This document shows, in pieces, positions 2,806 through 15,968 of a stretch of DNA of 15,968 nucleotides. A model generated the notes under the pieces. That model searched no databases. It saw only the letters and a list, made by a program, of their open reading frames with translations, and had not been told where the DNA came from. Source of the stretch: an uncultured Anaerolineales bacterium (GTDB lineage: Bacteria; Chloroflexota; Anaerolineae; UBA4142); contig CAIKBD010000346.1 of assembly GCA_903825565.1 (NCBI GenBank), positions 1 to 15,968 of the forward strand. Direction: 5' to 3'. The position numbers were made by a program, and so were the translations under genes. Every line of letters begins with the position of its first letter. Position 1 is the first letter of the stretch.

Positions 2806-2835
2806 TTTGAATCCTCCAAGAAAACGAATGGTGAG

Positions 2836-3750
2836 TTACGCTTTGGGCGCGGTGGGTTTGCGGAAGGGCGCGAGCCAAATCGGCGCGGCTTGCACTTCCA
2901 AGACGCCGTGACGCGGGCACGCTTCGACGCACGCGAGACAACCGATGCAATCACTGCTGATGGTGTCGGCGGTGGCGACCGGCAATTTCACCGGGCACGG
3001 TTTTTCGCAGACGTTGCACCCTTTACAACCTTCGCCTTGCCGGCGAATCCGCAAGAAACTCAAGTTGCCGAGCAGACTGATCGCGCCGCCGAGCGGGCAC
3101 AGGTAGCGGCACCACGCGCGTTCGACAAAGAGCGAGGCGACGAGGATGACGATCACGACGAGGTACGCGCCCCACGCTTCCGCCGGGTTAAACTCAAAGA
3201 TCCAACCGAGACCGAACAAGGTGCGATAGGGATCCCAATCGCCGAACCATAGTTTCACCGTAGCAATCGTTTGATACATGATGAACGCGAGCGTGACAAA
3301 CCGGCCCCAGCGCAAAACGCGATCCACATTCGCCGGCAGTTTGATTTCCTTGATGCGAAGTTTCGTGCGAATCCAGTTCATCAAATCCTGCACGGCGCCG
3401 AACGGGCAGACCCAGCCGCAGAACGCGCCGCCGGCGATCAGCACGCCGATCAACAAGCCGATGCCCAGGACGATGTTCGAGAGATGCGTTTTGGAAATGA
3501 ACTGCGCGCCGCCCGTGGTGATGAACCGCCACAAGGTTTCCAAGCCGCCCATCGGACAGAGCGCGTCAATCGAAGCGGTGGTGCCATCCTCGCCCGCGGT
3601 GTTGTGCACGACTGCGGCGTAGAGAATGAACGCGGTGAACGCGAGTTGCGAGATGCGGCGGATGCGATCCGTCCAAGTCATTCGCCAGCGGCGTTCCGCC
3701 GCCGGCGCCGTTGGTCGTTTAATGTCGAGAAAAAGATTTGGTGTTGACAT
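2836..3750 (-). CDS. NapH/MauN-like membrane-bound polyferredoxin (4Fe-4S binding protein)
   Basis: 305 aa from MSTPNLFLDIK, the ATG at 3748-3750 with GGGGGA SD. There are four TM segments and two CX3CP motifs, CGWVCPFG and CRYLCPLG. Two C-terminal ferredoxin motifs are CKGCNVCEKPCP and CIGCLACVEACP. This is the NapH/MauN/CcoG architecture. The 384-aa ORF in the track has an implausible Arg-rich N-terminal extension. Confidence 0.8.
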   Translation of the reverse strand: MSTPNLFLDIKRPTAPAAERRWRMTWTDRIRRISQLAFTAFILYAAVVHNTAGEDGTTASIDALCPMGGLETLWRFITTGGAQFISKTHLSNIVLGIGLLIGVLIAGGAFCGWVCPFGAVQDLMNWIRTKLRIKEIKLPANVDRVLRWGRFVTLAFIMYQTIATVKLWFGDWDPYRTLFGLGWIFEFNPAEAWGAYLVVIVILVASLFVERAWCRYLCPLGGAISLLGNLSFLRIRRQGEGCKGCNVCEKPCPVKLPVATADTISSDCIGCLACVEACPRHGVLEVQAAPIWLAPFRKPTAPKA

Positions 3751-3810
3751 GGTGTCCCCCTTGAATTTGTTTCGCTTGCTTGTCTTCACTATACTCAAGC
3801 GGTGTGGAGA

Positions 3811-3830
3811 TGTTGTGGAGATCGGATAGA
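3811..3830 (-). promoter_or_regulatory. Direct repeat TGTGGAGAT x2, a possible operator in the promoter region of the NapH-like operon
   Basis: TGTGGAGATGTTGTGGAGATC is two 9-mer copies with a 12-bp period. They lie 60-80 bp upstream of the NapH-like start codon, between the upstream terminator and the gene. Confidence 0.3.
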
Positions 3831-3896
3831 CGAGTGATGGAGTTCCGGGCGGCGCGCCGGACAAATTTGTAAATTGGCGCGACCTTTTCAAGGAGC

Positions 3897-3934
3897 AAAA
3901 AAACGGCGGGCAGAGTTGTACACTCTGCCCGCCG
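3897..3934 (-). terminator. Rho-independent terminator of the 3957..4484 gene
   Basis: A perfect 12-bp stem CGGCGGGCAGAG / CTCTGCCCGCCG with a 7-nt loop. On the minus strand it is followed by a run of seven U, the plus-strand A7 at 3897-3903. It lies 23 nt downstream of the stop codon. Confidence 0.85.
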
Positions 3935-3956
3935 CGAGAGGAGAAATCGTGGGCGT

Positions 3957-4484
3957 CTAGCCGCCGTTGCCGCGTCCTTTGCCCGACCAACCCGGGCGTC
4001 CGTACTGATCGCGCAGTTGCACGTTCGTGCCGGTCGTCAGGTTTTCGATCTTGGTGGTTTCAAAGATGCCGGCTTGATCAAACCCGGTCAGACGAATCTG
4101 ATCGCCGATTTTTGCCGTGAATTTGTTTTCGAGCGCAAAAGACCAGGGCCGATTTTCGACGATCAATTCCTTGCCGTCTGCGGTTTTAATCGCCAGGGTG
4201 ATCGCGTCCACGCTGGCGACGGTGCCGGTCGCGGTCGTGGTTTGCAGTGGTTGCGCCGTGTTCGTGTCGAGTTGCCCCCAGCGTGGACCTTGCCCGCCGT
4301 TGTAGGTTGTGCCGTCGCTCGGCGCGGTCGTGTTCATATTGCCGCGCCCTTGCCCGTAGCCGCCGCCGGTGACTTGCGTGGCGGTCGTCGCGCCGGTTTT
4401 ATCGAGCGTGCGAATGACTGCGCCCACGGCGACGATGCCCAGCGCCAGTGCGATTAGTGAAACGATCAAAATCTTTTTGAACAT
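3957..4484 (-). CDS. Secreted / membrane-anchored hypothetical protein
   Basis: ATG at 4484 with GGAGG SD (TTCACGGAGGTTAAAATG). The N-terminal signal or anchor is MFKKILIVSLIALALGIVAVGAV. A Gly/Thr/Asn-rich low-complexity region follows, then a ~90-aa beta-rich domain (VASVDAITLAIKTADGKELIVENRPWSF...IRLTGF) and a Gly-rich tail. A strong terminator follows the gene. Confidence 0.6.
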   Translation of the reverse strand: MFKKILIVSLIALALGIVAVGAVIRTLDKTGATTATQVTGGGYGQGRGNMNTTAPSDGTTYNGGQGPRWGQLDTNTAQPLQTTTATGTVASVDAITLAIKTADGKELIVENRPWSFALENKFTAKIGDQIRLTGFDQAGIFETTKIENLTTGTNVQLRDQYGRPGWSGKGRGNGG

Positions 4485-4537
4485 TTTAACCTCCGTGAAT
4501 TTGCGAGTTGTTGGTTGGTTTCAATTTGTGGAAAAAA

Positions 4538-5146
4538 CTACGCTTGCGTTTCGGCGTTCACGAGTTTAACCCGCGTGGGTTGCCAGCCACCACCGAACAA
4601 ACGCCCGGTGACGTTGGTGATCCAGCGCCAGTGAATCGCCAGGTGCACGGCGACTGCGCCGACGAGCGCAACGAACGCCCACGTGTGGATCAAATCCCAG
4701 GTCGTGCTATCGAACAGGAACGGCGCGCCGGTTTTGCCGGTGAAGAAAAAATACAGTCCCGATGCGGCGGTGAGCGTGAAAGAGATTGCGACGAGGGTGT
4801 TGATCGCGATGTTAAATTTCGCGCCTGCCGACAACGCGCCCGCGCCGCGCAGAACGCTGAGCGTCTTTTTAGTCATCGCCACGACCCAGCGCCAATGGAT
4901 GAGCACGTGCAGTGCGGCGACGACGATCATCGCCACGCCCGTCCACGTGTGCCAATCTTCCCAGGTGTGGCGGTCGAACAAGATCGTGATGCCATAGTAG
5001 GGGTTGCGGCCGCCGCGGTACCCGCCGGTGGGCAGAAACAAAAAGTAGATGCCGGACACCGCCGCGATCAACCCGCTGAGAAAAAGCGTTATATCGGTCA
5101 ACCAGTTTGCGCGCGTTTGTAGAGCCAGTCCTCGGTTTGCCATCAT
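4538..5146 (-). CDS. DUF4405-like membrane protein (putative heme-binding, cytochrome b-type), internally duplicated
   Basis: Start MMANRGLALQ at the tandem ATGs 5141-5146, with AGGAGG immediately upstream, so the SD spacing is short. There are four TM helices arranged as two repeated 2-TM modules. Each module ends in H(V/L)(L/A)IHWRW, giving LHVLIHWRWV and VHLAIHWRWI, and both carry conserved His. The upstream 70 aa of the track ORF are Ala/Ser-rich and unlikely to be coding. Confidence 0.55.
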   Translation of the reverse strand: MMANRGLALQTRANWLTDITLFLSGLIAAVSGIYFLFLPTGGYRGGRNPYYGITILFDRHTWEDWHTWTGVAMIVVAALHVLIHWRWVVAMTKKTLSVLRGAGALSAGAKFNIAINTLVAISFTLTAASGLYFFFTGKTGAPFLFDSTTWDLIHTWAFVALVGAVAVHLAIHWRWITNVTGRLFGGGWQPTRVKLVNAETQA

Positions 5147-5221
5147 GCCTCCTTGATCGTTGATTCTGGCATTATCATAGCAAAAGGTTATGGAGAAAAG
5201 ATGGAGGCGGTTTGGAGAAAG

Positions 5222-5263
5222 CAAGGATAAAAACAAAAGGATGAAGGCGAAACCTTCATCCTT
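5222..5263 (-). terminator. Rho-independent terminator of the 5310..5756 gene
   Basis: A perfect 11-bp stem AAGGATGAAGG / CCTTCATCCTT with loop CGAAA. On the minus strand it is followed by UUUGUUUUUAUCC. Confidence 0.8.
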
Positions 5264-5309
5264 TATCCGGGCAAAAATTTTCCAAGCGGTTTGTGCAACC
5301 GATGCGGCT

Positions 5310-5756
5310 CTAGTCGTGGCGTCCCCGCGCAAACCACTTGCCGCCGAGCCAGCCGCCGAATCCGCCAATCACGCTGTTGACGATTGCCAAGCCGAGCATC
5401 GGCGACCAAATGAAAAATCCGAGGAGGGAAACGCCGAGCATCGTTCCAACGCCGACCCAAATTCCCCAGCGCGCCGGATGGAGCGAGCGCGCCGGGATGA
5501 ACATGCCCGCCAGCGCGCCCGCCAATCCGCCGATGAGAATACCGCCGATGGGTCCGAAACACATCGCGTTGAAAATCGCGTTGGCGAATGCTTGCTCGGG
5601 CGTGACCTGCTCCGAGATGCCGAGCCGTTCGCCCATTTGTAATTTGCGCGCGACCTCTGCTGGAAACCACACGAGCGCGGCGAGCCAGCCGCTGATCGCG
5701 CCGGCGATGATTCCGCTGGCGGTGCCGCGAATGAGCAATGCAAATCTGGCGCGCAT
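5310..5756 (-). CDS. Small integral membrane protein with glycine-zipper TM helices (possibly GlsB/YeaQ/YmgE-like)
   Basis: ATG at 5754-5756 with AGGAGA SD 9 nt upstream. It has four predicted TM helices rich in GxxxG motifs (IGGILIGGLAGALAGMF, IGGFGGWLGGKWF). It is coupled to the upstream LivK-like gene by only 13 nt. Confidence 0.5.
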   Translation of the reverse strand: MRARFALLIRGTASGIIAGAISGWLAALVWFPAEVARKLQMGERLGISEQVTPEQAFANAIFNAMCFGPIGGILIGGLAGALAGMFIPARSLHPARWGIWVGVGTMLGVSLLGFFIWSPMLGLAIVNSVIGGFGGWLGGKWFARGRHD

Positions 5757-5769
5757 CGTCAAGGGTCTC

Positions 5770-6897
5770 CTATGGTTTCGGAAAGACTTGGACGAACGCG
5801 CCGTCCTTCACCTGAAAAATGTACACGCGTTGCTCTTTGAGATCGCCGCTCGCGTCGTACGTCACCTTGCCGATGAGCGTCGTCGCGTCGAGCGCGCGGA
5901 TCGCATCGGCAACGCGCGGCGCATCGAGCGTGTTCGCTTTCTTGACGCCTTCCGCCAGCACCAGCATCGCCGCGTAGCCCGGCACGCTATACGTTTCGGG
6001 GTTGCGCGATTCCACTTTTTGATAATCGTTCCACCATTGCTTGTCGCCGACAATTTTCGGATCGGGCGAGATCGCGCCGACGTAGGTGCCTTCGCTCGCG
6101 GGCGCGGCTTCGTCCACGTACGTCGAGTTGAAGCAACCGTCGGAGCAAATGAATTTCGCGGTGATGCCCGCATCGCGTAATTCCGGCAACAGTACCATCC
6201 CTTCGGTTTCATAGCCCGCAAGGAAAACGACATCGGGATTCGCGGTTTTGATCGGCGCGATAAATTTCGCGTACGTCGTTTGCGCTTCCGGGATTTTCAC
6301 GATGGCGGCGGGCGTGATGTTCAATGCTTTGAACGCGTTCGCCATTTGATCGCGCAAGCCGTTGCCGTACTCATTGTCCGCGTGCACGACGACGACGCGC
6401 TTGCCGCCGAGTTGCTCGACGATGAATTTCGCGAGCGCGGGCGCTTGCGCGGCATCGGTCGCGTTGACGCGGAAAAAGTTGCGATAGCCCTGTTTCGTCA
6501 GCGACACTTCGGATGCGGTGGGTGTGATGACGATAAGCGGCAAATCTTTATAGACCTGCATCGCCGCGAGTGTTTGCCCGCTGTTCAAATGTCCGATGAC
6601 GCCGATTACTTTTTTGCCCTGCTTGATCGCGTCCGCGATTTCTTTCGCTTTTTCCGCGGCGACATCCGAATCGGCTTGATCGTCAATCGCGATGACCTTG
6701 ACGGTGTAGCCGAGCAAACCGCCCTGGCGATTGAGTTGATCCGCCATTGTGCGCGCGCCGCCGACGACGGTTTGTCCGCCGTTCGCTTGCCAGCCGGACA
6801 GCGGCGCGACCGCGTAGACGATGACTTCGCCGCGCGGGGCGGTGGCGCAGGCGGTGGCGATGAGCGCGAGCGTGAGCAGTAGGATTATTTTTTTCAT
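5770..6897 (-). CDS. Branched-chain amino acid ABC transporter substrate-binding protein (LivJ/LivK, type I periplasmic binding fold), likely lipoprotein
   Basis: Start MKKIILLLTLALIATACA at the ATG 6895-6897, with GGAG SD 7 nt upstream and a lipobox-like LIATAC. The full-length match to the Leu/Ile/Val-binding family includes VIGHLNSGQTLAA, VVFLAGYETEG and a C-terminal lobe. The 14-aa MSPCHLVLSIRSGS extension in the track is a read-through into the GACAAGG repeat. Confidence 0.85.
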   Translation of the reverse strand: MKKIILLLTLALIATACATAPRGEVIVYAVAPLSGWQANGGQTVVGGARTMADQLNRQGGLLGYTVKVIAIDDQADSDVAAEKAKEIADAIKQGKKVIGVIGHLNSGQTLAAMQVYKDLPLIVITPTASEVSLTKQGYRNFFRVNATDAAQAPALAKFIVEQLGGKRVVVVHADNEYGNGLRDQMANAFKALNITPAAIVKIPEAQTTYAKFIAPIKTANPDVVFLAGYETEGMVLLPELRDAGITAKFICSDGCFNSTYVDEAAPASEGTYVGAISPDPKIVGDKQWWNDYQKVESRNPETYSVPGYAAMLVLAEGVKKANTLDAPRVADAIRALDATTLIGKVTYDASGDLKEQRVYIFQVKDGAFVQVFPKP

Positions 6898-6918
6898 TGA
6901 TCCACTCCGTATGGATAA

Positions 6919-6952
6919 GACAAGGTGACAAGGCGACAAGGCGACAAGGCGA
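6919..6952. repeat. GACAAGG-heptad repeat arm R1, the left terminal inverted repeat of the four-helix-bundle cassette
   Basis: GACAAGGTGACAAGGCGACAAGGCGACAAGGCGA is four tandem (N)GACAAGG units. It is 30/34 identical to the reverse complement of 7338-7376. Confidence 0.8.
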
Positions 6953-6958
6953 AGAATT

Positions 6959-7339
6959 CTAACCGATGATCCACTTGTCTGAATGACGAATCATCAAAAC
7001 CAATTTACCGATGATGTTGTCGTAGGTTGTATACAATTCACGTGCCGCTGTGGGTTCAAGATAATTGCATTTAACTGCAAACTCGATCCAAACCTGGGTT
7101 TCATTTGCTTCAGCTTCTGCAATGTTTAGGCAATTCTCAAAAGCACCCTCATATCGTCGTCGGCGCCATGCCTCCGCGATATTCGAGCACACGGCACGTG
7201 ACGAGCGACGAATCTGATCCGTGAGCGAATAGGTTTCCTCTTTTGGAAATTGCTTGGTCAGGGCAAAGATTTCCATCGCGGCATCAAAACCCATCGTGTA
7301 CACTTCTAGGTCACGATGCGTTTTTATTTTATTTGCCAC
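6959..7339 (-). CDS. Four-helix-bundle protein (TIGR02436; 23S rRNA intervening-sequence protein / DGR Avd-like family)
   Basis: The sequence RDLEVYTMGFDAAMEIFALTKQFPKEETYSLTDQIRRSSRAVCSNIAEAWRRRRYEGAFENCLNIAEAEANETQVWIEFAVKCNYL is the canonical signature of this family. The start is uncertain: GTG at 7337-7339 follows AAGGAGA, GTG at 7358-7360 lies inside repeat R2, and ATG (M of MGFD) lies further in. Confidence 0.75.
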   Translation of the reverse strand: MANKIKTHRDLEVYTMGFDAAMEIFALTKQFPKEETYSLTDQIRRSSRAVCSNIAEAWRRRRYEGAFENCLNIAEAEANETQVWIEFAVKCNYLEPTAARELYTTYDNIIGKLVLMIRHSDKWIIG

Positions 7340-7376
7340 GTCTCCTTGTCGCCCTGTCACCGTGTCACCTTGTCCC
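7338..7376. repeat. GACAAGG-heptad repeat arm R2 (reverse orientation), the right terminal inverted repeat of the four-helix-bundle cassette
   Basis: CGTCTCCTTGTCGCCCTGTCACCGTGTCACCTTGTCCCC. Its reverse complement GGGGACAAGGTGACACGGTGACAGGGCGACAAGGAGACG aligns to R1 with 4 mismatches over 34 bp. It overlaps the last 7 codons (RGDKVTR*) of the upstream gene and the 5' end of the four-helix-bundle ORF. Confidence 0.8.
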
Positions 7377-8190
7377 CGCGGTACACCTCATCCATCGCCC
7401 CCTGCAATTCATTCAATTTGGTCACTTGCTCCGCGATGTCATCGCGCAACCTCTGCGACCGGCTGTCCTGGATGTCGTCTTTCGAACGAATCAACATCAA
7501 TTGCGAATACACCGTGCCAAGCGCGGTCAGCGTCGCATCGAGTTGCAGTTCGGCTTGCTCCATCGTGTTCGTGAGTTGCGCCAGGTTTTGCGCTTGCGCC
7601 CGTTTCGAGGCGAGCGTTTGCTTGGCTTGCTCGCGCACCGCGTCATCATCCTCGCGCGCCACCCGTTTTTCGAGTTCGCGCAATGCGCTAGGCGCGGACG
7701 CCGCATCCTGCTTGATAATCTCATCGCGTTCGTACGCATCGAGCCGTTGCGCGAGCCGGAAAATTTGCGCGATCCAATCGGCAATGCCGGCAGTGGACGA
7801 TTGCAAGTGATCGCGCAAAATCCCGGCTTCGCTTGTACGAATCGTCGCTTCGATACGGTTGCGATAATCGAGCGCGCGTTGCACCGCGGCGCGCAGGGAT
7901 GGCGTGTGGATCGTCGCGGGGTTGAACTCTTCGCGCAACATTTCGGAGACAACCTGCGCGCCGGTGTCAATGTCCTGGATGCTCGTGACGATGATCGCGA
8001 TTTCCGCGACCGCGCCAATCACGAGCCAGTACCACCACTGCCACCAATCGAATGGATGTTGCACAAAGTACGCGAGCAAAATCGTGATCGCAATCGTCGC
8101 CGCGCTTTCAAAGCGAAAAAACGCGTGCGTAAGGATCGCGGAGGTTGCGCGGGTGCGAATCGGTGTTTGGTTCGACATAGATAATTGCAT
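7357..8190 (-). CDS. Membrane-anchored coiled-coil protein (2 N-terminal TM helices plus a cytoplasmic helical domain; XpaC/TelA-like by architecture only)
   Basis: Start MQLSMSNQTP at the ATG 8188-8190; MSNQ at 8178 is also possible. There are two TM segments, AITILLAYFVQHPFDWW and WYWLVIGAVAEIAIIVTSI. A ~200-aa Ala/Gln/Arg/Glu-rich predicted coiled-coil domain follows. The gene lies immediately upstream of the flotillin gene in the same orientation. Confidence 0.55.
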   Translation of the reverse strand: MQLSMSNQTPIRTRATSAILTHAFFRFESAATIAITILLAYFVQHPFDWWQWWYWLVIGAVAEIAIIVTSIQDIDTGAQVVSEMLREEFNPATIHTPSLRAAVQRALDYRNRIEATIRTSEAGILRDHLQSSTAGIADWIAQIFRLAQRLDAYERDEIIKQDAASAPSALRELEKRVAREDDDAVREQAKQTLASKRAQAQNLAQLTNTMEQAELQLDATLTALGTVYSQLMLIRSKDDIQDSRSQRLRDDIAEQVTKLNELQGAMDEVYRGDKVTR

Positions 8191-8196
8191 CTCGTT

Positions 8197-8263
8197 GACA
8201 AGGAGACCGGGCGACAAGGGGACAAGGAGAAAAATCTCCTTGTCGCCCTGTCTCCTTGTCTAC
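8197..8263. repeat. Solo palindromic GACAAGG-heptad element R3 (both arms adjacent, no cargo)
   Basis: Left arm GACAAGGAGACCGGGCGACAAGGGGACAAGGAGA, loop AAAAT, right arm TCTCCTTGTCGCCCTGTCTCCTTGTC. The left arm is about 30/34 identical to R1. The arms pair over roughly 23 bp with one extra bulged heptad. It sits in the intergenic region between the flotillin stop and the start of the coiled-coil gene. Confidence 0.8.
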
Positions 8264-8270
8264 TTTATTT

Positions 8271-10238
8271 CTACTTGTCTTGCTTCAAACTCTGCTTGAT
8301 CTGTTCGCGCAATGCTTCCGCTTCGGCGGAACGTTGCGCGCCGGGATTGACTTGCACGCCGAGGCGCTCTGAGAGCAACATCGCGAGCAAACCTTCCATC
8401 ACATTGCCCGTGCTACCTTGCTGACCATCGCCGCTGTTGATCATCACACGCGGCACGACATCAATGCCGGATTGTTGCACGGCTTCGGCGAAACGATTAA
8501 GCACCGTTTGCGTGACCTGGAATTGCGGTCCGCCGTACGCGCGCACTTGCTCTTCGGTCGCCAACGCTTGCGCGATCCCGATACGCGCCACTTTTTCCGA
8601 TTCCGCTTCGGCGAGCGTGCGAATCTGCGACGCCTGTTGCACCGCGCGTTGATACTCGGCTTTACCCTGGTTCGATTGCACCGTGATGCTCAACTCGGAC
8701 TCGGTGATGTGCTTTTGCATTTCCGCGCGCGCCTGCGCCTCGCGCAGTTCGCGTTCCTTGACCGCCGCCGTTTCCTGACGCCCGTACGTTTCGACTTGCT
8801 CGGTGGCGATTTGGCGCGAACGCAACTGCATCAAAATCGTTTCGATTTGTTGATCGTTCGCGGGCGAGGTCGGCGTGCCGATCAACACTTCTTCGAGTTG
8901 CAGATTATAGTGCTGGAATTTTTCCTGCATCTCCTGGCTCGCGATTTGCTGAATCATACTGCGTTCCTGGATCAGTTGAATCAGCGTGCGCGTCTGCGCG
9001 ATGTTCTTGAAATACGCCGACACCATCGGGTCGAGGGTTTGCTCGACGAGGCGTTTAATGTCGCCGAACCGTTGAATGACGAGCGGCGCTTTTTGGTAAT
9101 CAATGTGAATCACGACCGAGAGCGGGAGCGATGGCTCGAACGCATCTTTGGTGATGAGCGACACTTCGGCGAGATTTTCGTCGAGCCGATGCGAGCCGAC
9201 CTCACTGCGAATCCATTTCAAAATAATGTTCGTCGTCGGCACCATAATCACTTTGCCGGCGTAGGTGTTGAACGCATACTTGCCGGGCAGTAACGCTTCG
9301 CTCCACACGCCGCGCTTGCCGCGCTCGACCATCTCACCGTGCCGATACTCTTTGCCGGACAAGTCTGCGCCGAGTTCGCCGGTGTACGACACGACCACGC
9401 CAACATTGCCGACTTCGACAATCGTCTTTTTGATCATTTCGACAGTAGCGAAAAAGCGATTGATATAGTACGTGCCTTCGACCAGCACTTGGAGTTGCCG
9501 CCCGCGCAAACCGTTTGCCGCCAAGAATTTATCGGCGTCTTGGAAATTGTTGTGATACGTCTCCGCGTCCGCCGGCTTGTCGCCGACGATGGGCGCGATG
9601 ATTTCGCCTTGCGGCAAACTGGGCCCATCGTGCACCGTGACGATGCCGACGAGATCATCCGTGTCCTTGATCACGACCGGGCGAAAGCCGTTGCGCTCGG
9701 CGATCACTTCCGCCATCTTGCGAATGACGTCGGCTTCGTCGCGGTTGAGCGGCAGAGAAAACACGCGCTCTTCGGTGATGACGACGAACTGCATCAGGTT
9801 GATCGCGTATGTGCCTTCGCGCAAAATCCGGCGTTGTGGACCGCGTTGCCCGTCGTTGGCAAGAAATGTTTCGACATCCTGGAAATCGCTCACCGTCGCG
9901 TTCGACGCGAGAACCTGGGTCGGATCGAGTTGCTTGCCGTCGCGCGCAAACACATAGCCGATTTTCCCTTGCGTGATCGTGACGAGCGGCGCGATGTGGA
10001 CGTGGTACTGAATCGGCATGAGGTAATGCAAACCGCCGCGCAAAACGTGCGCCTGGTAGCCGGCTTCGCCCGCGAGTGCGATAAATCCGGACTTGAGCGA
10101 ACCCTTGCCGCTGATGCGCTTTTCGACAATGCCGATGCGGCTGTTCGGGATGAAACGAAAACCGGACAGCGCGATCAGCACGACGCAGATGAGCAAGATG
10201 GCGAATGTAAAACCGAGCAGTGGCAGAATGACGTTCAT
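8271..10238 (-). CDS. Flotillin-family SPFH/band-7 protein (YqiK / FloT-like)
   Basis: 655 aa from MNVILPLLGF, the ATG at 10236-10238, with AAGGAGA SD 5 nt upstream. It has an N-terminal TM anchor and an SPFH domain. The long C-terminal flotillin-type coiled coil shows EA-repeat character (AVKERELREAQARAEMQK...AEAESEKVARIGIAQALATEEQVRAYGG). Confidence 0.9.
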   Translation of the reverse strand: MNVILPLLGFTFAILLICVVLIALSGFRFIPNSRIGIVEKRISGKGSLKSGFIALAGEAGYQAHVLRGGLHYLMPIQYHVHIAPLVTITQGKIGYVFARDGKQLDPTQVLASNATVSDFQDVETFLANDGQRGPQRRILREGTYAINLMQFVVITEERVFSLPLNRDEADVIRKMAEVIAERNGFRPVVIKDTDDLVGIVTVHDGPSLPQGEIIAPIVGDKPADAETYHNNFQDADKFLAANGLRGRQLQVLVEGTYYINRFFATVEMIKKTIVEVGNVGVVVSYTGELGADLSGKEYRHGEMVERGKRGVWSEALLPGKYAFNTYAGKVIMVPTTNIILKWIRSEVGSHRLDENLAEVSLITKDAFEPSLPLSVVIHIDYQKAPLVIQRFGDIKRLVEQTLDPMVSAYFKNIAQTRTLIQLIQERSMIQQIASQEMQEKFQHYNLQLEEVLIGTPTSPANDQQIETILMQLRSRQIATEQVETYGRQETAAVKERELREAQARAEMQKHITESELSITVQSNQGKAEYQRAVQQASQIRTLAEAESEKVARIGIAQALATEEQVRAYGGPQFQVTQTVLNRFAEAVQQSGIDVVPRVMINSGDGQQGSTGNVMEGLLAMLLSERLGVQVNPGAQRSAEAEALREQIKQSLKQDK

Positions 10239-10261
10239 CGTGATCTCCTTCTTCAATGAGC

Positions 10262-10328
10262 GGGAAAGGGGGTGAGAGGGAGGGTGGGGGATTTTCTCCC
10301 CCTCACCTTGTCTCCCACCTTCCCCCTC
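10262..10328. repeat. G-rich / C-rich imperfect inverted repeat R4 containing a CCTTGTC unit
   Basis: GGGAAAGGGGGTGAGAGGGAGGGTGGGGGA tttt CTCCCCCTCACCTTGTCTCCCACCTTCCCCCTC. It lies in the intergenic region between the VWA gene stop and the flotillin start, so it may be a terminator or structured RNA. Confidence 0.5.
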
Positions 10329-10332
10329 GCTA

Positions 10333-12018
10333 TCAAAAGTACGTTGACAGTATTTTATACAACTTGCGAATTGTCTCCGGGTCGGCGCGGCGGGCGAATC
10401 CGCCGGTCGTTTCCGCCAGCGTGTTGAGCACGTTCCAATCGGCGTCGTTGCCGTAGCCGATGCAAAAGATCACCACCGGCACGCCGGTCTGGTTGGTGCG
10501 CTTGATCTTTTGCGCGAGCGCGTTCAAATTCGTTTGCGACGAATTTTCGATCCCGTCGGTCATCACCAGAATTGCGTTGATGCGGTCGCGTTCGTTGCGC
10601 TTTTGCAGATCGTCGTACGCGTACTGCACGGCATCGAGCAAAGCGGTTTGCCCGCTTGCGCGCAATCCGCTCACTTGCGTTTTGAGCGCGGCGCGTTGCT
10701 TGCTCACATCTTGCGGCGCGACGGCGTTATACACCCGGTTCGAGAATGGCACCAAGCCCACGCGATCCCGGTCGCCCTGCACTTGATCGAGAAAGGTGTT
10801 GAGCGCGTCTACGGCTTGCGTCAACTTGTTTTGCTCGCCCATACTGCCGGACGTATCCGCGATGAGATAAATATTCGCGGGGCGTTTTGCCAAGTACCAC
10901 ACCGCTTGCACTTGTTCGATGATCGCCGGGTTTGGCATTTGTAGCGTCGTCTGCGGTTGCGCCGGGTCAACGCCGTTCGCCGTTTTGATCGGCGACGCCG
11001 GATCGTCAAGCCGCAAGTTCAAATCCACCGGGCGATAGCCGGCTTGCAAAATCAATTTTTGCGTTTCGGACGCCAAGAGAAAATCGCGCAAGCGGCGATA
11101 CGTGAGCCGCTGATCGTTTGTGAGCGTCGGCTGTTCGAGCAGGGCAAGGGGATGATCCTGCCACAAAGTTCCTTCGACGGGATAGATCGCAACGAGTTTT
11201 TGCGCCGACTTGGTGTTGAAATAAATGACCATCTGCTCGGAAACGATGAATGCGTCGAGGTAACTGCGACCGCTTTTGAGAACCTGGTCAATCGTTGCGG
11301 CTTCGCCTTCGCCGTAATAGCGCACCGTTTTTTCGAGCGCGGCGACGTAATCGAGCGTCGCGCGATTTTGCAGATCGTCTTCGGTGAGGTTGCGCGTTTT
11401 GTTCGCGCCGGCGTAAAATTCAGCGAGCGTCGCGAGTAAGCCGCTGGCGGAACTGGTGGACGGGTGGCTCCATTTGAAATTCGGATCGCTCCGCGCTTTG
11501 GTCAACAAATCTTTCCAGCCGATTTGTTTTTGTGGATGTCCGAGTACTTGCGCGACCTCGTTCCACATTGCGATCACGACCGGCGTCACGGCGAAGCGTG
11601 TTGCTTCGCCGACAAGTGGGCGATCCAACCCGGCGTCAATTTGCGCGAGCCACAGCGACGAGTCGGGGTTGATCGCCGTGAATTTGCCGGCGCGCGCTTG
11701 CTCGACAATGTCTGCGGCGTCCAGCTTGGTCGCGTTGATTTTCATCGGCAAGCCGGACGGGGTTTTGTAATTCGCCTTGTTGAAACGCGCGACCAGGTCT
11801 TGCATCAGCGCGTCCTTTTCCGGCGAGTAGGCGAGATCGAGCGTGGCGGTTTGCGGCGCAGGTGTGGCGGAAGCGTCGTTGTTCAACAGCATGAACACGC
11901 CGGCGATGCCGCACATTGCCGCGCCGATGCCGATTACGACGACGACGACGGCAAGCAAAGCGCAACCGTTCGCTTTATTCAGGGCAGGATTTTTTGGCGC
12001 ACGTTTATTTTTTGGCAT
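10333..12018 (-). CDS. Membrane-anchored VWA (von Willebrand factor type A) domain protein with an N-terminal periplasmic-binding-like domain
   Basis: Start MPKNKRAPKNP at the ATG 12016-12018. It has one TM helix, ALLAVVVVVIGIGAAMCGIAGVFMLL. A ~330-aa extracytoplasmic domain follows. The C-terminal VWA domain has the MIDAS motif IYLIADTSGSMGEQNKL...TALLDAV...LVMTDGIENS. The track ORF starts at a GTG 4 codons upstream. Confidence 0.8.
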   Translation of the reverse strand: MPKNKRAPKNPALNKANGCALLAVVVVVIGIGAAMCGIAGVFMLLNNDASATPAPQTATLDLAYSPEKDALMQDLVARFNKANYKTPSGLPMKINATKLDAADIVEQARAGKFTAINPDSSLWLAQIDAGLDRPLVGEATRFAVTPVVIAMWNEVAQVLGHPQKQIGWKDLLTKARSDPNFKWSHPSTSSASGLLATLAEFYAGANKTRNLTEDDLQNRATLDYVAALEKTVRYYGEGEAATIDQVLKSGRSYLDAFIVSEQMVIYFNTKSAQKLVAIYPVEGTLWQDHPLALLEQPTLTNDQRLTYRRLRDFLLASETQKLILQAGYRPVDLNLRLDDPASPIKTANGVDPAQPQTTLQMPNPAIIEQVQAVWYLAKRPANIYLIADTSGSMGEQNKLTQAVDALNTFLDQVQGDRDRVGLVPFSNRVYNAVAPQDVSKQRAALKTQVSGLRASGQTALLDAVQYAYDDLQKRNERDRINAILVMTDGIENSSQTNLNALAQKIKRTNQTGVPVVIFCIGYGNDADWNVLNTLAETTGGFARRADPETIRKLYKILSTYF

Positions 12019-12054
12019 TCCGTTTTTCACTCGTTCCGCTTTACGTTTTACGCT

Positions 12055-13242
12055 CTATCGCCCTTTGATATTCAGATCAAACCAGCGCCGCAGGGCTTGC
12101 AACGTATCCCGATCCGGCGAGCGCATCCGCGCCGGACTTTCCACTTTGGGTTTGGCGCCTTGCCCTTGCCATTTCACGAACAAGCTGTCGGCGGTGGCGA
12201 TGGAGACTTCGGCGTTTGCCGGGCGAAAGCCGCGTTGCGCCGCCAGGGTTTGAAGCGGCGCGGAAAGCAAAAATTTTTCAAACTGGATCGCCGCGTTCTT
12301 TTCCGCCGCGCTGGTTTCGGGTCCCATCCAAATCGTGAACGGAAAATCGAACCAGGTCAAATATTTCGGATACACGATCACGAGCGGGTCCGCCCAGCGC
12401 GTTTGGATGCCGCTCATGTTCACGAGCAGATCGCTTTCGAGCAACTGCCCGCCGTCGCCGACCGAGGAGCCGAACAGCGCCAGGTCTTCGACCGTGTACG
12501 AACTGAGCGAAGAGAAATCGGTGACGGCGCCCATCAACTCTTTGAGCCACGCTTGGAATTTGGGGTTGGTTACATCTTCGGTGGCGATGCTTGCTTTGTC
12601 ATAGTACTCCCCTGCCGCCGACACCATCGCCAGCAAACCCGCCGCGTTCTTGTTCGGGTTCGGTACGATCAATTTGAAATAGCCCCATTTCGGATCGCCG
12701 CCTAGTTCGGGCCATCCCCCTTTGGCGATTGCCGCGTCGTGTACGGTTTTCCAATTGACGTTGCCCTGCCCAAACTTTTTTTCGAGCGTGTCAAAGCGCG
12801 ATTTGTAAATGCCCCACGCGAACAGCGAGGTGACGAGCGGGCGCGCGCGATATTCGCCATCGGTCAAGAAAATGTCGCGCCCCAGTTTCTCGCTTTGCGT
12901 CGCATTGACCAGTTCGACGAGATAGCGGCTGTCAGGAATCCATGCGGTTGGCACCGGGTTGAATTCGCCGCGATCCCATTTGCCGAGCGCGGTTACACTG
13001 TCCATCGGCGTCACGCTCACTACGATTGTCCGTCCGTCGAGCGTACGTTTCTCGGCGTTGAATTTTTGCGCCGCGTCTTGCACCCAGGGTTCGATGGGCA
13101 ACGCCGAAACCACGCGCACCGAAATTGGTTGCGCGGTGGGATTCGGCACACTCCCGCTAATTTGCGAAAGCAAAAACGAAACGCCGACGATGAGGAGCGC
13201 GAGCAGAACGACGGCGAAGAAAATGAGTCTTGTGCGATTCAT
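12055..13242 (-). CDS. Membrane-anchored extracytoplasmic solute-binding-like protein (PBP-fold), paralogous in architecture to the N-terminal half of the VWA protein
   Basis: ATG at 13240-13242. It has an N-terminal TM anchor, LIFFAVVLLALLIVGVSFLL, and a ~370-aa secreted domain with alternating beta-alpha character (VVSVTPMDS..., LIVPNPNKNAAGLLAMVSAAGEYY...). There is a 36-nt gap to the VWA gene, so they are probably co-transcribed. Confidence 0.6.
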   Translation of the reverse strand: MNRTRLIFFAVVLLALLIVGVSFLLSQISGSVPNPTAQPISVRVVSALPIEPWVQDAAQKFNAEKRTLDGRTIVVSVTPMDSVTALGKWDRGEFNPVPTAWIPDSRYLVELVNATQSEKLGRDIFLTDGEYRARPLVTSLFAWGIYKSRFDTLEKKFGQGNVNWKTVHDAAIAKGGWPELGGDPKWGYFKLIVPNPNKNAAGLLAMVSAAGEYYDKASIATEDVTNPKFQAWLKELMGAVTDFSSLSSYTVEDLALFGSSVGDGGQLLESDLLVNMSGIQTRWADPLVIVYPKYLTWFDFPFTIWMGPETSAAEKNAAIQFEKFLLSAPLQTLAAQRGFRPANAEVSIATADSLFVKWQGQGAKPKVESPARMRSPDRDTLQALRRWFDLNIKGR

Positions 13243-13256
13243 AAGGTTGTCTCTGT

Positions 13257-13329
13257 TGACAAGGTGACAAGGAGACAGGGAGACACGGAGCGATCACCTT
13301 GTCACCTTGTCTCCGTGTCTCCTTGCCTT
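13257..13329. repeat. Solo palindromic GACAAGG-heptad element R5
   Basis: Left arm GACAAGGTGACAAGGAGACAGGGAGACACGGAG, spacer CGATCA, right arm CCTTGTCACCTTGTCTCCGTGTCTCCTTGCCTTG. The left arm is about 28/33 identical to R1. The order of the complementary segments is A-B-A'-B', so the pairing is imperfect or pseudoknot-capable. It sits between the PspA stop and the start of the PBP-like gene. Confidence 0.8.
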
Positions 13330-13339
13330 GTGTTGCGGA

Positions 13340-14017
13340 TTACGCTAATCCCAATTTTTTCTTCCGTTCCGCCAACTGCGTGTCGAGCGTGTGGCGTTCG
13401 AGCAGTTCGTCCATTTGCGTGTCGAGCCGCGATGCTTGCATTTCGGCGCGCGCGCTGGCTTTGTCGAGGCGTCCGCGAATGCTTTCCGCCATGCGCGCCA
13501 CGTCTTGATCGCCCGAACCCATCAGATTATCGAGCGATTGCATCGTCTTCGCCGTCAACTCTTTCGACTTGGCGAGATCAAGCAGGGCTTGCATTTCCTC
13601 GCGTTCTTGCTTGACGGTGGTCAGTTTCGCTTCGAGTTTCAGTTTGGCATCGAGCAATTTTTGGTACTCGGACTGTTGGCGCTCGTACTGCGACTTGTAT
13701 GTTTCGGCGAGCCGCGCGGTCGAATTCAATTTGCTCTGCGCGGCGACGGCGAGTTCTTCTCTGCCTTCCTTCAACATCAAGTCAATGTTGCGATCCAACT
13801 CGGCGGCTTTGTCAGCGAAATCGTCCCATTTGCGTTTGAGCGTTTTCACTTCGCCGCCGATGGTTGCCGCGGCGTCTTCCAGGTCTTCGAGATTGTTTTC
13901 AACCTGGCGGATGTACTGATCGATCACCGCAAGCGAATTTTTCTTGAGCGCCTCATCCACGAGCGCGTGCAAATTTGCCGCGATGAGCGTTTGCACTTTT
14001 TCGATTAAACTAGCCAT
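13340..14017 (-). CDS. pspA: PspA/IM30 family protein (phage shock protein A / Vipp1 / LiaH-like)
   Basis: 225 aa from MASLIEKVQTLIAANLHALVDEALKK, the ATG at 14015-14017, with AAGGAGGAA SD 4 nt upstream. The all-helical coiled coil carries the family N-terminal amphipathic helix and the conserved ...KRKWDDFADKA...LAKSKELTAKT... layout. Confidence 0.9.
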   Translation of the reverse strand: MASLIEKVQTLIAANLHALVDEALKKNSLAVIDQYIRQVENNLEDLEDAAATIGGEVKTLKRKWDDFADKAAELDRNIDLMLKEGREELAVAAQSKLNSTARLAETYKSQYERQQSEYQKLLDAKLKLEAKLTTVKQEREEMQALLDLAKSKELTAKTMQSLDNLMGSGDQDVARMAESIRGRLDKASARAEMQASRLDTQMDELLERHTLDTQLAERKKKLGLA

Positions 14018-14057
14018 TGGGTTCCTCCTTGTTTTGAATCTGGCGCAATTATAACAT

Positions 14058-14066
14058 CGCGCGGCG
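14058..14066 (-). promoter_or_regulatory. Extended -10 element TGTTATAAT upstream of pspA
   Basis: The minus strand reads GATGTTATAATTGCG, about 40 nt upstream of the pspA ATG. It matches the TGnTATAAT consensus and has no good -35. Confidence 0.4.
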
Positions 14067-14099
14067 CGCCAATCCTGACGTGCGGCTGACGGATTGCGG

Positions 14100-14206
14100 T
14101 TACTCGTCCTGATATTCGTTGGGCGCGACGAACAAGCGTCGAATGGCACCGCCCAGACGCACGCCATTCTTCTCGTGCGTCATTCCGATTTTTTCCGCGA
14201 CGCGCT
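14100..14206 (-). pseudogene. Relic 3' end of a GNAT acetyltransferase gene (last ~36 codons, diverged paralogue of the 14631..15146 C-terminus)
   Basis: It translates to QRVAEKIGMTHEKNGVRLGGAIRRLFVAPNEYQDE*. The intact GNAT ends QRVAEKIGMTHEQDVVRPNGAVRRLYVLHADKQDE*. The 33 bp at 14172-14204 (TCGTGCGTCATTCCGATTTTTTCCGCGACGCG) are identical to 14701-14733, and the rest is about 60-65% identical. There is no upstream coding continuation, because an in-frame stop lies at 14258. Confidence 0.65.
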
Positions 14207-14265
14207 GTAAAAAAACAGTCGCCCGTTTCGAATGGTGAAAGCAACACCAAGTGCGATCTCACATC

Positions 14266-14316: not shown

Positions 14317-14532
14317 TTATCGGGCGTCTTGCTTGGTTTTTCTGGCGCGGCGCATCATCTGGGCGAGTGTTGCGACATCCGTATCGGGCAACCAGTTGAA
14401 ACGATCACGCGTGTAATCGCCGTGTCCGGTTTCAAATTGCTGGAGAAACCGAATCATTCCAACGACGCCCAACTCGCGCGTCAGGGCGGCAAGTCCACTC
14501 ACGCGAATCTGTTCCCAAGTCATTGTTGGCAC
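14317..14532 (-). CDS. Small hypothetical protein (71 aa) with its own promoter, sitting between the GNAT gene and the GNAT 3' relic
   Basis: GTG at 14530-14532 is preceded by GGAG at 9-nt spacing; the alternative ATG at 14521-14523 has no SD within range. The protein is MPTMTWEQIRVSGLAALTRELGVVGMIRFLQQFETGHGDYTRDRFNWLPDTDVATLAQMMRRARKTKQDAR. It is not Arg-rich shadow-like and I could not recognise a family. Its 3' end and downstream region are homologous to the GNAT 3' end and downstream region. Confidence 0.45.
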   Translation of the reverse strand: MPTMTWEQIRVSGLAALTRELGVVGMIRFLQQFETGHGDYTRDRFNWLPDTDVATLAQMMRRARKTKQDAR

Positions 14533-14630: not shown

Positions 14631-15146
14631 TCATTCGTCTTGCTTATCCGCGTGCAGCACATACAACCTTCGCACTGCGCCGTTCGGACGCACCACGTCC
14701 TGCTCGTGCGTCATTCCGATTTTTTCCGCGACGCGTTGCGACGCGCGATTGTCCGGCTCGATCAACGCGACAATGCGCTCCAACTCCAAAACGGTGAACG
14801 CATAGTCGCGAATTGCGCGTGCGATTTCAGTTGCGTACCCGTTGCCCCACACGGGCTTGGCAAAAACATACACCAACTCAATCTCAAGCGCGCCGGCGAT
14901 CTCTTTATCGAGCAAGCCGCAGTGCCCGATGAGCGCGCCGCTCGCCTTTTCGATCACCGGGCACAAATCGAAACGCGGCGGCGGAGCAACTTGCGCGTCT
15001 TGATCAAAAATCGCGATCAACTTTTGATACTCGCGCGGACCGCCCATAAAACGCGTCACGTCGGGATCCGTCCAGAGTGCCGCGAGTGCGGGCGCGTCGT
15101 CAGTGCGGAGTGAGCGCAAAAGCAAGCGAGAGGTTTCGAGGTTCAT
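14631..15146 (-). CDS. GNAT family N-acetyltransferase (RimJ/RimL-like)
   Basis: 171 aa from MNLETSRLLLRSLRTDDAPALAALWTDPDV, the typical RimJ/RimL N-terminus. The acetyl-CoA binding core is present: GHCGLLDKEIAGALEIELVYVFAKPVWGNGYATEIARAIRDYAF. The C-terminal motif is ALIEPDNRASQRVAEKIGM. The track ORF's 21-aa N-terminal extension is not supported. Confidence 0.85.
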   Translation of the reverse strand: MNLETSRLLLRSLRTDDAPALAALWTDPDVTRFMGGPREYQKLIAIFDQDAQVAPPPRFDLCPVIEKASGALIGHCGLLDKEIAGALEIELVYVFAKPVWGNGYATEIARAIRDYAFTVLELERIVALIEPDNRASQRVAEKIGMTHEQDVVRPNGAVRRLYVLHADKQDE

Positions 15147-15218: not shown

Positions 15219-15968
15219 CTATCGAACTAGTTTATACCCCCGCCCCCGCACGCTGACCAAATATTTGGGCTTGGCAGGGTCTGGTTCGATTTTGGCGCGT
15301 GCCCGGCTGATCAATTTTTCGATGCGCGCATCGTCCACTTCATCAATGTAATCCTCGCCCCACACGCCTTGCACGATGGCGTACTTGTCGCAGACGTGAT
15401 CTAGGCGACCGTACAAAAACAACAGTAGACGAAACTCGAGATCAGTCAACGCTTCGACTGGTTTGCCCTCGACATACACGTTGCCTGTATTCACGTCAAT
15501 GTCCACGCCGCGCGCGGACGGTTGTTGCACTAAACGCCGCCGCCGTACGAAATCGGCAAACAGTCGCGAGAAAATTTCGCTATCGTCGCCGTCACGCAGG
15601 ATGGATTTGGCGCGCAAACTGCGTCGCGCCGCATTGTGTGTCTCTTCGCCCGGTGTGGCTTGACGAGCGAAACTGGCGTCGAGCAACACCGCTTGTTCCG
15701 CCGGTTTGAGGTCGCGCCAAATTTTTTCGAGTTCGCTTTGCACGTTCGGCTCGTTCACTAAACTTTGTTGGACGAGTTGATGAATGACGCGGTCGCCATG
15801 CGCACCCCGCACCGGTGCGCCGGTTACGCCACCGAGCGCGCCACACACGGCTTGCGCGATCCCAGGATGTCCGTCCGCATTCTCGCGGATAAAAGCGAGA
15901 TCGGCGGCGCTGAACGTGACGCCCTCGCGCGCGGCGAACTGCTCACACAACGTGCGGGTGTCGGCGGC
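15219..15968 (-). CDS. Transcriptional regulator with C-terminal OmpR/PhoB-type winged-helix DNA-binding domain (5'-truncated by the window edge)
   Basis: The C-terminus LTDLEFRLLLFLYGRLDHVCDKYAIVQGVWGEDYIDEVDDARIEKLISRARAKIEPDPAKPKYLVSVRGRGYKLVR is a textbook trans_reg_C domain. The upstream ~150 aa are helical and not a receiver domain. The ORF is open to the window end. Confidence 0.7.
   Translation of the reverse strand, partial: AADTRTLCEQFAAREGVTFSAADLAFIRENADGHPGIAQAVCGALGGVTGAPVRGAHGDRVIHQLVQQSLVNEPNVQSELEKIWRDLKPAEQAVLLDASFARQATPGEETHNAARRSLRAKSILRDGDDSEIFSRLFADFVRRRRLVQQPSARGVDIDVNTGNVYVEGKPVEALTDLEFRLLLFLYGRLDHVCDKYAIVQGVWGEDYIDEVDDARIEKLISRARAKIEPDPAKPKYLVSVRGRGYKLVR

Follow-up and report, generated by a model that had tools for sequence, protein, structure and literature searches.

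The window analysed here is the full 15,968-nt stretch of contig CAIKBD010000346.1 from an uncultured Anaerolineales bacterium, and all coordinates given below are window positions. It contains a block of genes, all on the minus strand, whose conserved core order is pspA, PBP1 (a protein with a periplasmic-binding-protein (PBP) fold), PBP-VWA (a second PBP-fold protein carrying a VWA domain), a helical protein with two transmembrane segments (the 2TM protein) and a LivJ-type lipoprotein. It is highly probable that these genes constitute a conserved, co-regulated PspA block with these partners. A specific coupling of the outer unit to PspA across the membrane, via the 2TM protein, is put forward tentatively, and the overall reading, that of a regulated PspA envelope-stress block of Anaerolineae-type Chloroflexota with an inferred mechanism, is offered in the view that it is evenly balanced. 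What is new is the set of conserved partners, apparently undescribed, within a phage shock protein (PSP) system; the kind of system is not itself new.

Membrane repair and remodelling by PspA/IM30/ESCRT-III proteins is found in all domains of life. How PspA-type proteins are told where and when to act is, to our knowledge, understood for only a few model bacteria. The block would offer a different solution, with predicted surface-exposed ligand-binding and VWA partners instead of PspBC or LiaF-type sensors, and it adds a new 2TM helical family and a STAND/winged-helix regulator with a recognisable operator. If the coupling is real, it provides a testable model for how an extracytoplasmic signal reaches a cytoplasmic membrane-repair machine. 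The host lineage is large and mostly uncultured, and is abundant in wastewater sludge, sediments and groundwater.

Gene content and conserved order of the block

An earlier sequence-only reading of this DNA had described five co-oriented genes, namely pspA (13340-14017; 225 aa), PBP1 (12055-13242; 395 aa), PBP-VWA (10333-12018; 561 aa), a YqiK/flotillin-type SPFH gene (8271-10238; 655 aa) and the 2TM gene (7357-8178; 273 aa). The coordinates and domain calls of all five hold when the proteins are scored against Pfam and NCBIfam. Two start codons were revised after the products called on public contigs, to 10238 for the flotillin gene and 8178 for the 2TM gene; for the former, the ATG at 10238 suits the called 655-aa product better than the TTG at 10256. 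The block reaches further than first noted, from the operator upstream of pspA (14048-14090) through the LivJ-type gene (5770-6897). This 3' gene, the operator and the regulator gene upstream of it had been overlooked.

An alignment of PBP-VWA orthologues was scanned against one genome per GTDB species and returned 341 relatives, the best 80 of which were fetched with their flanks; all 80 carry a PBP-VWA orthologue of at least 48% identity. These loci come from Chloroflexota-type metagenome-assembled genomes with the labels Anaerolineae, Anaerolineales, Ardenticatenales, Caldilineales, Ca. Amarolinea and Ca. Aquidulcis, and one is labelled Acidobacteriota. Gene content was determined by tblastn with the window proteins, and a locus was considered informative where enough contig was available on the relevant side.

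Conserved synteny was what the sequence-only reading depended on, and pspA, PBP1, PBP-VWA and the 2TM gene stay together in almost all of the 80 loci. PBP1 lies directly upstream of PBP-VWA in 74 of 75 informative loci, pspA upstream of PBP1 in 48 of 49, the 2TM gene downstream of PBP-VWA in 60 of 60, and the LivJ-type gene downstream of the 2TM gene in 46 of 49. This order is maintained down to identities of 57-60% for PspA, 55-60% for PBP1, 48-52% for PBP-VWA and 38-45% for the 2TM protein. Intergenic gaps are mostly short, and PBP1 and PBP-VWA often abut or overlap. Past the LivJ-type gene, the window genes have no counterpart in other loci. Since the outer flanks vary while the order is kept, the block is truly delimited and does not simply belong to a longer stretch of collinear genes.

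The pairing of PspA with flotillin is the part of the block already known in principle, and it is the least conserved here. The flotillin is of the YqiK type (Band_7, 64 bits against a cut-off of 23.6; homologues are named flotillin family or YqiK) and has a TM-like segment at residues 4-22. It is found in the block only in L001-3 (which include the window organism's contigs), L007, L012 and L017, and in L089, a locus found through the flotillin itself, with the order as in the window including a GNAT acetyltransferase gene. Counted by informative loci, it lies within the block in 2 of 60, plus L012 and L089. The protein is common in these bacteria (its 120 best matches are 75-93% identical), and orthologues of 75-81% identity are solitary genes in three unrelated contexts. 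The simplest reading is one relocation of a housekeeping flotillin into the block, probably in an ancestor of the window's subclade, where it has been retained while PBP-VWA diverged to ~69%. In six other loci, the 2TM and LivJ-type genes are separated by a pair that encodes NfeD and a stomatin-type Band_7 protein. SPFH proteins recur in the block as optional members, and the proposal that flotillin is a general component of it did not survive these counts.

Regulation of pspA and the recurrent stem-loops

The window PspA is a member of the PspA/IM30 family (ESCRT-III superfamily), with a PF04012 match of 61 bits (cut-off 33.9) that aligns residues 5-220 to profile positions 3-216 of 220. It has no transmembrane (TM) segment, its gene is preceded by a strong Shine-Dalgarno sequence (AAGGAGG), and identity across loci is 58-93%. 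It is not an equivalog of Escherichia coli PspA or Bacillus subtilis LiaH, scoring 36.7 bits against the 243 required by TIGR02977 and 31 against the 380 of NF045984. In one locus (L083:2195-3746), PBP1 is preceded by a tandem pair of pspA genes whose products share 70% and 40% identity with the window PspA.

The regulator gene (15219-15950) is cut by the window end, which leaves the C-terminal 243 aa of a STAND NTPase with an OmpR/PhoB-type winged helix (Trans_reg_C, 58.7 bits). The full protein, taken from a contig of the same organism (L001:6675-8024), has 449 aa with AAA_16, nSTAND1 and a C-terminal Trans_reg_C domain. A receiver domain was not found in it, and the STAND NTPase stands in its place. 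A regulator orthologue is located directly upstream of pspA in 31 of 51 informative loci, with variable upstream genes in the others. In most loci the gap between regulator and pspA is ~120-300 nt, and the GNAT gene is absent there.

The putative operator and promoter of pspA (14048-14090) comprise two direct repeats, GTCAG at 14090-14086 and GTCAG at 14079-14075, with an 11-bp period, and an extended -10 box (TG at 14056-14055, TATAAT at 14053-14048). Across loci the arrangement is GTCAG-N6-GTCAG, often with a third GTCAT or GTCAG at the same 11-bp period, immediately before a TAnAAT -10 box. The strict GTCAG-N6-GTCAG pattern has 37 matches on both strands of 2.52 Mb of locus sequence. Of these, 32 are on the coding strand at most 200 nt ahead of pspA and are spread over 31 of 62 loci, with one more at 209 nt. 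This corresponds to an enrichment of ~170-fold upstream of pspA. The window itself has a single strict match, at pspA, and a relaxed motif is found in 42 of the 62 loci. Promoter-like matches in the region are not above chance (5 observed, 3.9 expected).

OmpR/PhoB-type winged-helix activators typically use direct repeats that are one helical turn apart and extend over the -35 position. For binding the GTCAG repeats, the adjacent STAND/winged-helix protein is the candidate that suggests itself, and the motif is also found in 10 loci without an adjacent regulator gene. In L037, a 5-kb insertion parts pspA (3091) from PBP1. A second operator with three repeats lies ~300 nt upstream of PBP1 in this locus (8485-8515), and the two copies read GTCAGCGTGCTGTCAGGCGAATGTCATGCA and GTCAGCCTGCTGTCAGGCTCCCGTCATGCA. 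An operator copy before PBP1 suggests that the downstream genes belong to the same regulon, and this split operon points to co-regulation of pspA with PBP1 onward.

Three strong stem-loops interrupt the block in the window, after pspA (13250-13332; -41.6 kcal/mol, z -5.0), after PBP-VWA (10262-10328; -41.5 kcal/mol, z -3.4) and after the flotillin gene (8194-8263; -48.4 kcal/mol, z -9.3). None is present between PBP1 and PBP-VWA in the window. The three have no U-tract, a consensus scan for intrinsic terminators found none at these hairpins, and Rfam gave no match in the window. Those after pspA and the flotillin gene are formed by mirrored GACAAGGN octamers, arrays of which give 18 matches where 0.06 would be expected by chance. 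Octamer-type stretches occupy 6911-6965, 7333-7379, 8189-8265 and 13250-13332.

The sequence-only reading had suggested segmented expression on the basis of the hairpins, and strong stem-loops do recur at two of the same junctions in other genomes when mononucleotide shuffles are used as the control. The median z is -3.7 at the pspA/PBP1 junction (39 loci, 77% with z below -2) and -3.67 at the PBP-VWA/2TM junction (32 loci, 69%). The corresponding values are -0.14 at the PBP1/PBP-VWA junction (20 loci, 20%) and -0.49 at the 2TM/LivJ-type junction (34 loci, 26%). The stem-loops occupy the same position with unrelated sequence, often as tandem 7-8-nt units mirrored on the other arm; in related genomes (pspA/PBP1 junctions of L004-L017) the units are CAGUGAA/CAGUAUU, GGUGGUUN or GACGAGUG. 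They likely lead to more PspA than downstream products, whether by partial termination or by 3'-end protection.

Membrane proteins, proposed mechanism and alternatives

PBP1 and the N-terminal half of PBP-VWA belong to the type II PBP fold (SBP_bac_11/SBP_bac_8). The SBP_bac_11 match of PBP1 (23.4 bits) is just under the cut-off of 25, with SBP_bac_11 found in 15 of 15 orthologues and SBP_bac_8 in 13 of 15; PBP-VWA exceeds the same cut-off (50.1 bits, profile 2-227 of 227) and has a VWA match of 74 bits. The two PBP parts, said to share their architecture in the sequence-only reading, are homologous by hhalign (probability 97%, E 3.5e-11, 290 columns). In PBP1 a single N-terminal TM segment (residues 6-24) follows MNRTR, and the N-terminal tail of PBP-VWA has five K/R ahead of its TM segment (residues 20-38). 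By the positive-inside rule, such a K/R-rich N-terminus ahead of one TM segment predicts an extracytoplasmic position for the PBP and VWA domains. The residues of the metal-ion-dependent adhesion site (MIDAS), D388, S390, S392, T458 and D488, are invariant in all 80 PBP-VWA orthologues, and the VWA domain resembles the extracellular VWAs of ITIH, TRAP, CLCA, alpha2-delta and BatB. The conserved PBP-VWA loops SPEK, PDSS and WSHPSTSSASG are candidate pocket loops, the third of which differs in its residues in PBP1. A role for the VWA as an adaptor touching PspA or flotillin, as the sequence-only reading had proposed, is unlikely, since the VWA is predicted to lie outside and PspA, the SPFH domain and the 2TM helical domain inside. 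The third PBP-fold protein of the block, the LivJ-type (type I PBP) lipoprotein, matches Peripla_BP_6 at 188 bits and has a lipobox-like LIATAC motif.

The 2TM protein is predicted to consist of a TM hairpin and an all-helical domain of ~190 aa (AlphaFold2 model, predicted local distance difference test score (pLDDT) 77). It has no sequence match in Pfam, NCBIfam or the PDB, and its model matches generic helical proteins only. The possibility that it is a membrane-anchored PspA paralogue was rejected (hhalign against the PspA alignment, probability 0.4%). The family contains 837 clusters at the 50% identity level (E up to 1e-3), and its C-terminal helical domain has conserved LGTVYSQ and MDEVY motifs. 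The C-terminal ~175 residues recur fused to Ser/Thr kinase and multi-TM regions, in one case with an added TCAD9 domain; to BTAD and the same 2TM region; and to pentapeptide repeats with PF13239 2TM modules (examples are proteins P0341, P0370, P0297, P0256 and P0366). The BTAD fusion sets the N-terminus in the cytoplasm, followed by two TM helices, and thus the helical domain would be cytoplasmic, on the same side as PspA. The domain looks like an undescribed sub-membrane signalling domain. One of 15 members, the L083 orthologue, matches PF10112 (XpaC/Halogen_Hydrol) over the 2TM region and first helix at 24.8 bits (cut-off 29.8, E 2.5e-5), with the window 2TM protein giving no match, and a relationship between 2TM and XpaC proteins is to be taken as an unproven lead only.

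The mechanism proposed for the block begins with the winged-helix regulator, which would activate the pspA promoter under envelope stress through the 11-bp-spaced GTCAG repeats overlapping the -35 position. Through partial termination or stabilisation of the 3' end, in a liaIH-type arrangement, the stem-loop after pspA would make PspA more abundant than any other product of the block. PspA would work at the inner membrane face with the 2TM protein as its membrane partner. On the outside, PBP1 and PBP-VWA would act as one membrane-anchored unit that may include the LivJ-type lipoprotein. The PBP clefts may bind a small, probably anionic, ligand or an envelope polymer, and the metal-ion site of the VWA may bind a protein or an acidic ligand. 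The TM helices of the 2TM protein would tie the outer unit to the protein's cytoplasmic helical domain, which would recruit PspA to the membrane or release it, in analogy to PspB/C, LiaI and mycobacterial PspM. SPFH proteins (flotillin here, NfeD-stomatin elsewhere) would be optional scaffolds of the same membrane sites. A broader version, in which a whole class of Chloroflexota possesses a trans-envelope PSP system whose PBP pair/VWA/LivJ receptor reports the state of the envelope to PspA and the STAND/winged-helix regulator through the 2TM domain, is rather doubtful. If true, the 2TM helical domain, which elsewhere is fused to Ser/Thr kinases and to SARP-type BTAD regulators, would be a new module of general use, as a partner of PspA or in signalling beneath the membrane.

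Several observations count against the proposed mechanism. The operator is absent or unrecognisable in about one third of loci, and the regulator is adjacent in only 31 of 51. Every counted locus was chosen for carrying a PBP-VWA orthologue, and the sample covers a single phylum. Three units with separate expression would explain the stem-loops just as well. Hardly any residues of PBP1 and PBP-VWA lie in the cytoplasm, and only ~8 residues make up the outer loop of the 2TM protein, such that coupling would need the TM helices; the links from PspA to the 2TM protein and from the 2TM protein to the PBP unit are themselves proposals. The second PBP lobe of the AlphaFold2 model is too poor (pLDDT below 50) for a ligand class to be read from it, and no solved structure was matched by sequence for the PBP proteins.

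The most direct competing account is that synteny exists here without shared function. pspA would then be a stand-alone stress gene, PBP1 and PBP-VWA would serve adhesion or the anchoring of an envelope or sheath component via the MIDAS, LivJ would be an ordinary nutrient-binding protein, and the genes would stay neighbours by inheritance within the lineage. The division of the block by stem-loops into three units (pspA; the PBP pair; 2TM/LivJ) suits this account, as do the location of the products on opposite membrane faces, the fact that up to 5 kb can be inserted between pspA and PBP1, and nearest VWA structures that include surface adhesins and pilus tip proteins. It is nevertheless considered unlikely, although a serious contender, given an order kept in 46-74 of 49-75 informative loci at 40-60% identity with both outer flanks replaced. 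Furthermore, the only split locus examined with a recognisable motif has a copy of the pspA operator before its downstream part, and the inserted accessory genes are membrane-related (NfeD-stomatin, flotillin, PLDc_N and YbjQ).

An uptake system, with the three PBP-fold proteins as substrate-binding parts and PspA co-expressed to protect the membrane under transport or export load, would suit the matches to SBP_bac_11 and Peripla_BP_6, both of which are ABC-transporter binding-protein families, and PspA/Snf7 operons with an ABC transporter and a PBPB-OmpA protein are recorded in a survey of PSP systems (Ravi et al., 2024; PMC11237479). This is improbable, as no ABC permease or ATPase gene was found in or next to the block, in the window, in longer contigs or in the annotation of a 60-kb contig. 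In addition, transport substrate-binding proteins are not typically anchored by a TM segment, as PBP1 and PBP-VWA are, or fused to a VWA, as one of the two is, and the neighbours past the LivJ-type gene vary. The presence of both a STAND NTPase regulator and a vWA protein could also suggest a system for conflict or phage defence, in which PspA would be the effector that protects or acts on the membrane; one 2TM-domain relative is fused to a kinase and TCAD9, a 'ternary complex associated' domain, and toxin-antitoxin-like genes occur in some gaps. However, PADLOC-DB returned only weak coiled-coil matches of PspA to JetC (E ~5e-4) and nothing for the rest of the eight proteins, the predicted location of the vWA is extracytoplasmic, and the block is vertically conserved with stable content, not patchy or variable, which makes a defence role very improbable. 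The regulated PspA block thus remains our preferred reading; what stands of the sequence-only reading is the synteny, the undescribed combination and the segmented expression, with flotillin as a component and the VWA adaptor set aside.

Relation to known systems and accessory genes

In B. subtilis, PspA depends for its membrane localisation on YdjI, an SPFH protein, and on the membrane proteins YdjG/H (PMC8581546). The pspA-ydjGHI (pspA-samGHI) operon is similar to the window in placing pspA first, followed by membrane proteins and an SPFH protein. The window likewise combines pspA with an SPFH protein and with a small membrane protein whose helical domain is predicted to be cytoplasmic. However, it has no counterpart of YdjG (zinc-ribbon/NTF2-like) or YdjH (TPM), and its SPFH protein is of the large YqiK/flotillin type and belongs to the block in one subclade only. 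The conserved partners here are instead two PBP-fold proteins (one with a VWA), the novel 2TM protein and the LivJ-type lipoprotein. SPFH genes have joined the PspA locus in at least two separate ways, by flotillin relocation in one subclade and by NfeD-stomatin insertion in other lineages, which agrees with the link between PspA and SPFH proteins in the B. subtilis experiments.

Several operon classes that combine PspA with Band-7/flotillin proteins exist (Ravi et al., 2024; PMC11237479), and the survey authors interpreted its Band-7/flotillin and CesT/Tir classes as tying extracellular sensing to sub-membrane dynamics (PMC11237479). The survey classes carry CesT/Tir chaperones, AAA+ ATPases, YqiJ/YuaF (NfeD) or polyamine genes, whereas the core described here has none of these. 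In the accessible portions of the survey, the sole PBP-type PspA partner is the PBPB-OmpA protein with an ABC transporter, and those portions of its text and supplement make no mention of a vWA partner (PMC11237479). Among the papers covered by literature searches, none pairs PspA with a VWA partner in bacteria. The combination, which the sequence-only reading believed to be undescribed, is absent from these sources.

The classical Psp (PspF-PspABC) and Lia (LiaIH-LiaFSR) systems resemble the block in having an inducible pspA or liaH behind a dedicated, regulator-controlled promoter. In both, small membrane proteins sense stress and anchor PspA or LiaH, and the PspA gene is expressed above the downstream genes. 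However, PspB, PspC, PspF, LiaI, LiaF and Toastrack were not found among the block genes with Pfam and NCBIfam, nor were PspB, PspC or PspF found in the neighbouring genes, and the regulator is a STAND NTPase with an OmpR-type winged helix in place of a sigma-54 enhancer-binding protein or a two-component response regulator. The TelA-XpaC membrane-stress pair of Firmicutes is comparable in that XpaC likewise has two TM segments and a helical part in the cytoplasm and is encoded beside a helical stress protein, and upregulation of xpaC-telA has been reported in daptomycin-resistant Enterococcus faecium (PMC6811118). The block differs from it in lacking TelA, and the XpaC match is sub-threshold and confined to the single member noted above.

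Accessory genes have entered the block at several places. Between pspA and PBP1, a 72-aa PLDc_N-type two-TM protein is inserted in seven loci (L018, L021, L022, L025, L026, L027 and L030) and a YbjQ-family gene in four (L026, L027, L041 and L044). PLDc_N and YbjQ families are membrane- or stress-associated. Further inserts in the block gaps include DUF4230 and toxin-antitoxin-like genes.

The interval between regulator and pspA contains the GNAT acetyltransferase gene of the window (14631-15146, minus strand; Acetyltransf_3, 112 bits). A GNAT gene lies between regulator and pspA in L089 as well, and it is an accessory insertion of the window's subclade. A GNAT remnant, a 35-codon 3' piece (QRVAEKIGMTHEKNG...YQDE*; ~14101-14207, minus strand), is located just upstream of the pspA operator and was recognised by a repeat match to the intact gene, the DNA of 14101-14207 being 73% identical to that of 14635-14738 at the 3' end of the intact GNAT gene. 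At the place of this remnant, L089 carries GNAT and DUF218. On account of the remnant and of the GNAT/DUF218 genes in L089, the interval seems to turn over. It also contains a putative 68-codon open reading frame (MTWEQIRVSGLAALTRELGVVGMIRFLQQFETGHGDY...; 14317-14523, minus strand) with no Pfam family, downstream of a good sigma-70-like match (TTGACG-17-TATGAT with TG, 14601-14573).

Beyond the block, the minus strand of 2143-5756 encodes a glycine-rich 148-aa membrane protein, a DUF4405 protein, a 175-aa protein, a Fer4_5 polyferredoxin-like membrane protein and a 220-aa protein; these genes are common only to L002, from the same organism, and L004. Within the block, a four-helix-bundle gene of the 23S_rRNA_IVP family (6959-7360, minus strand; PF05635, 106 bits) has a GTG start that overlaps the 2TM-gene stop and sits between the arms of a split GACAAGGN-octamer hairpin (6919-6957 and 7329-7374, 88% complementary). 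Its restriction to contigs of the window organism suggests that it was inserted recently into the hairpin loop and does not belong to the module, an arrangement reminiscent of the way in which other genes of the family are placed within rRNA intervening-sequence stem-loops.

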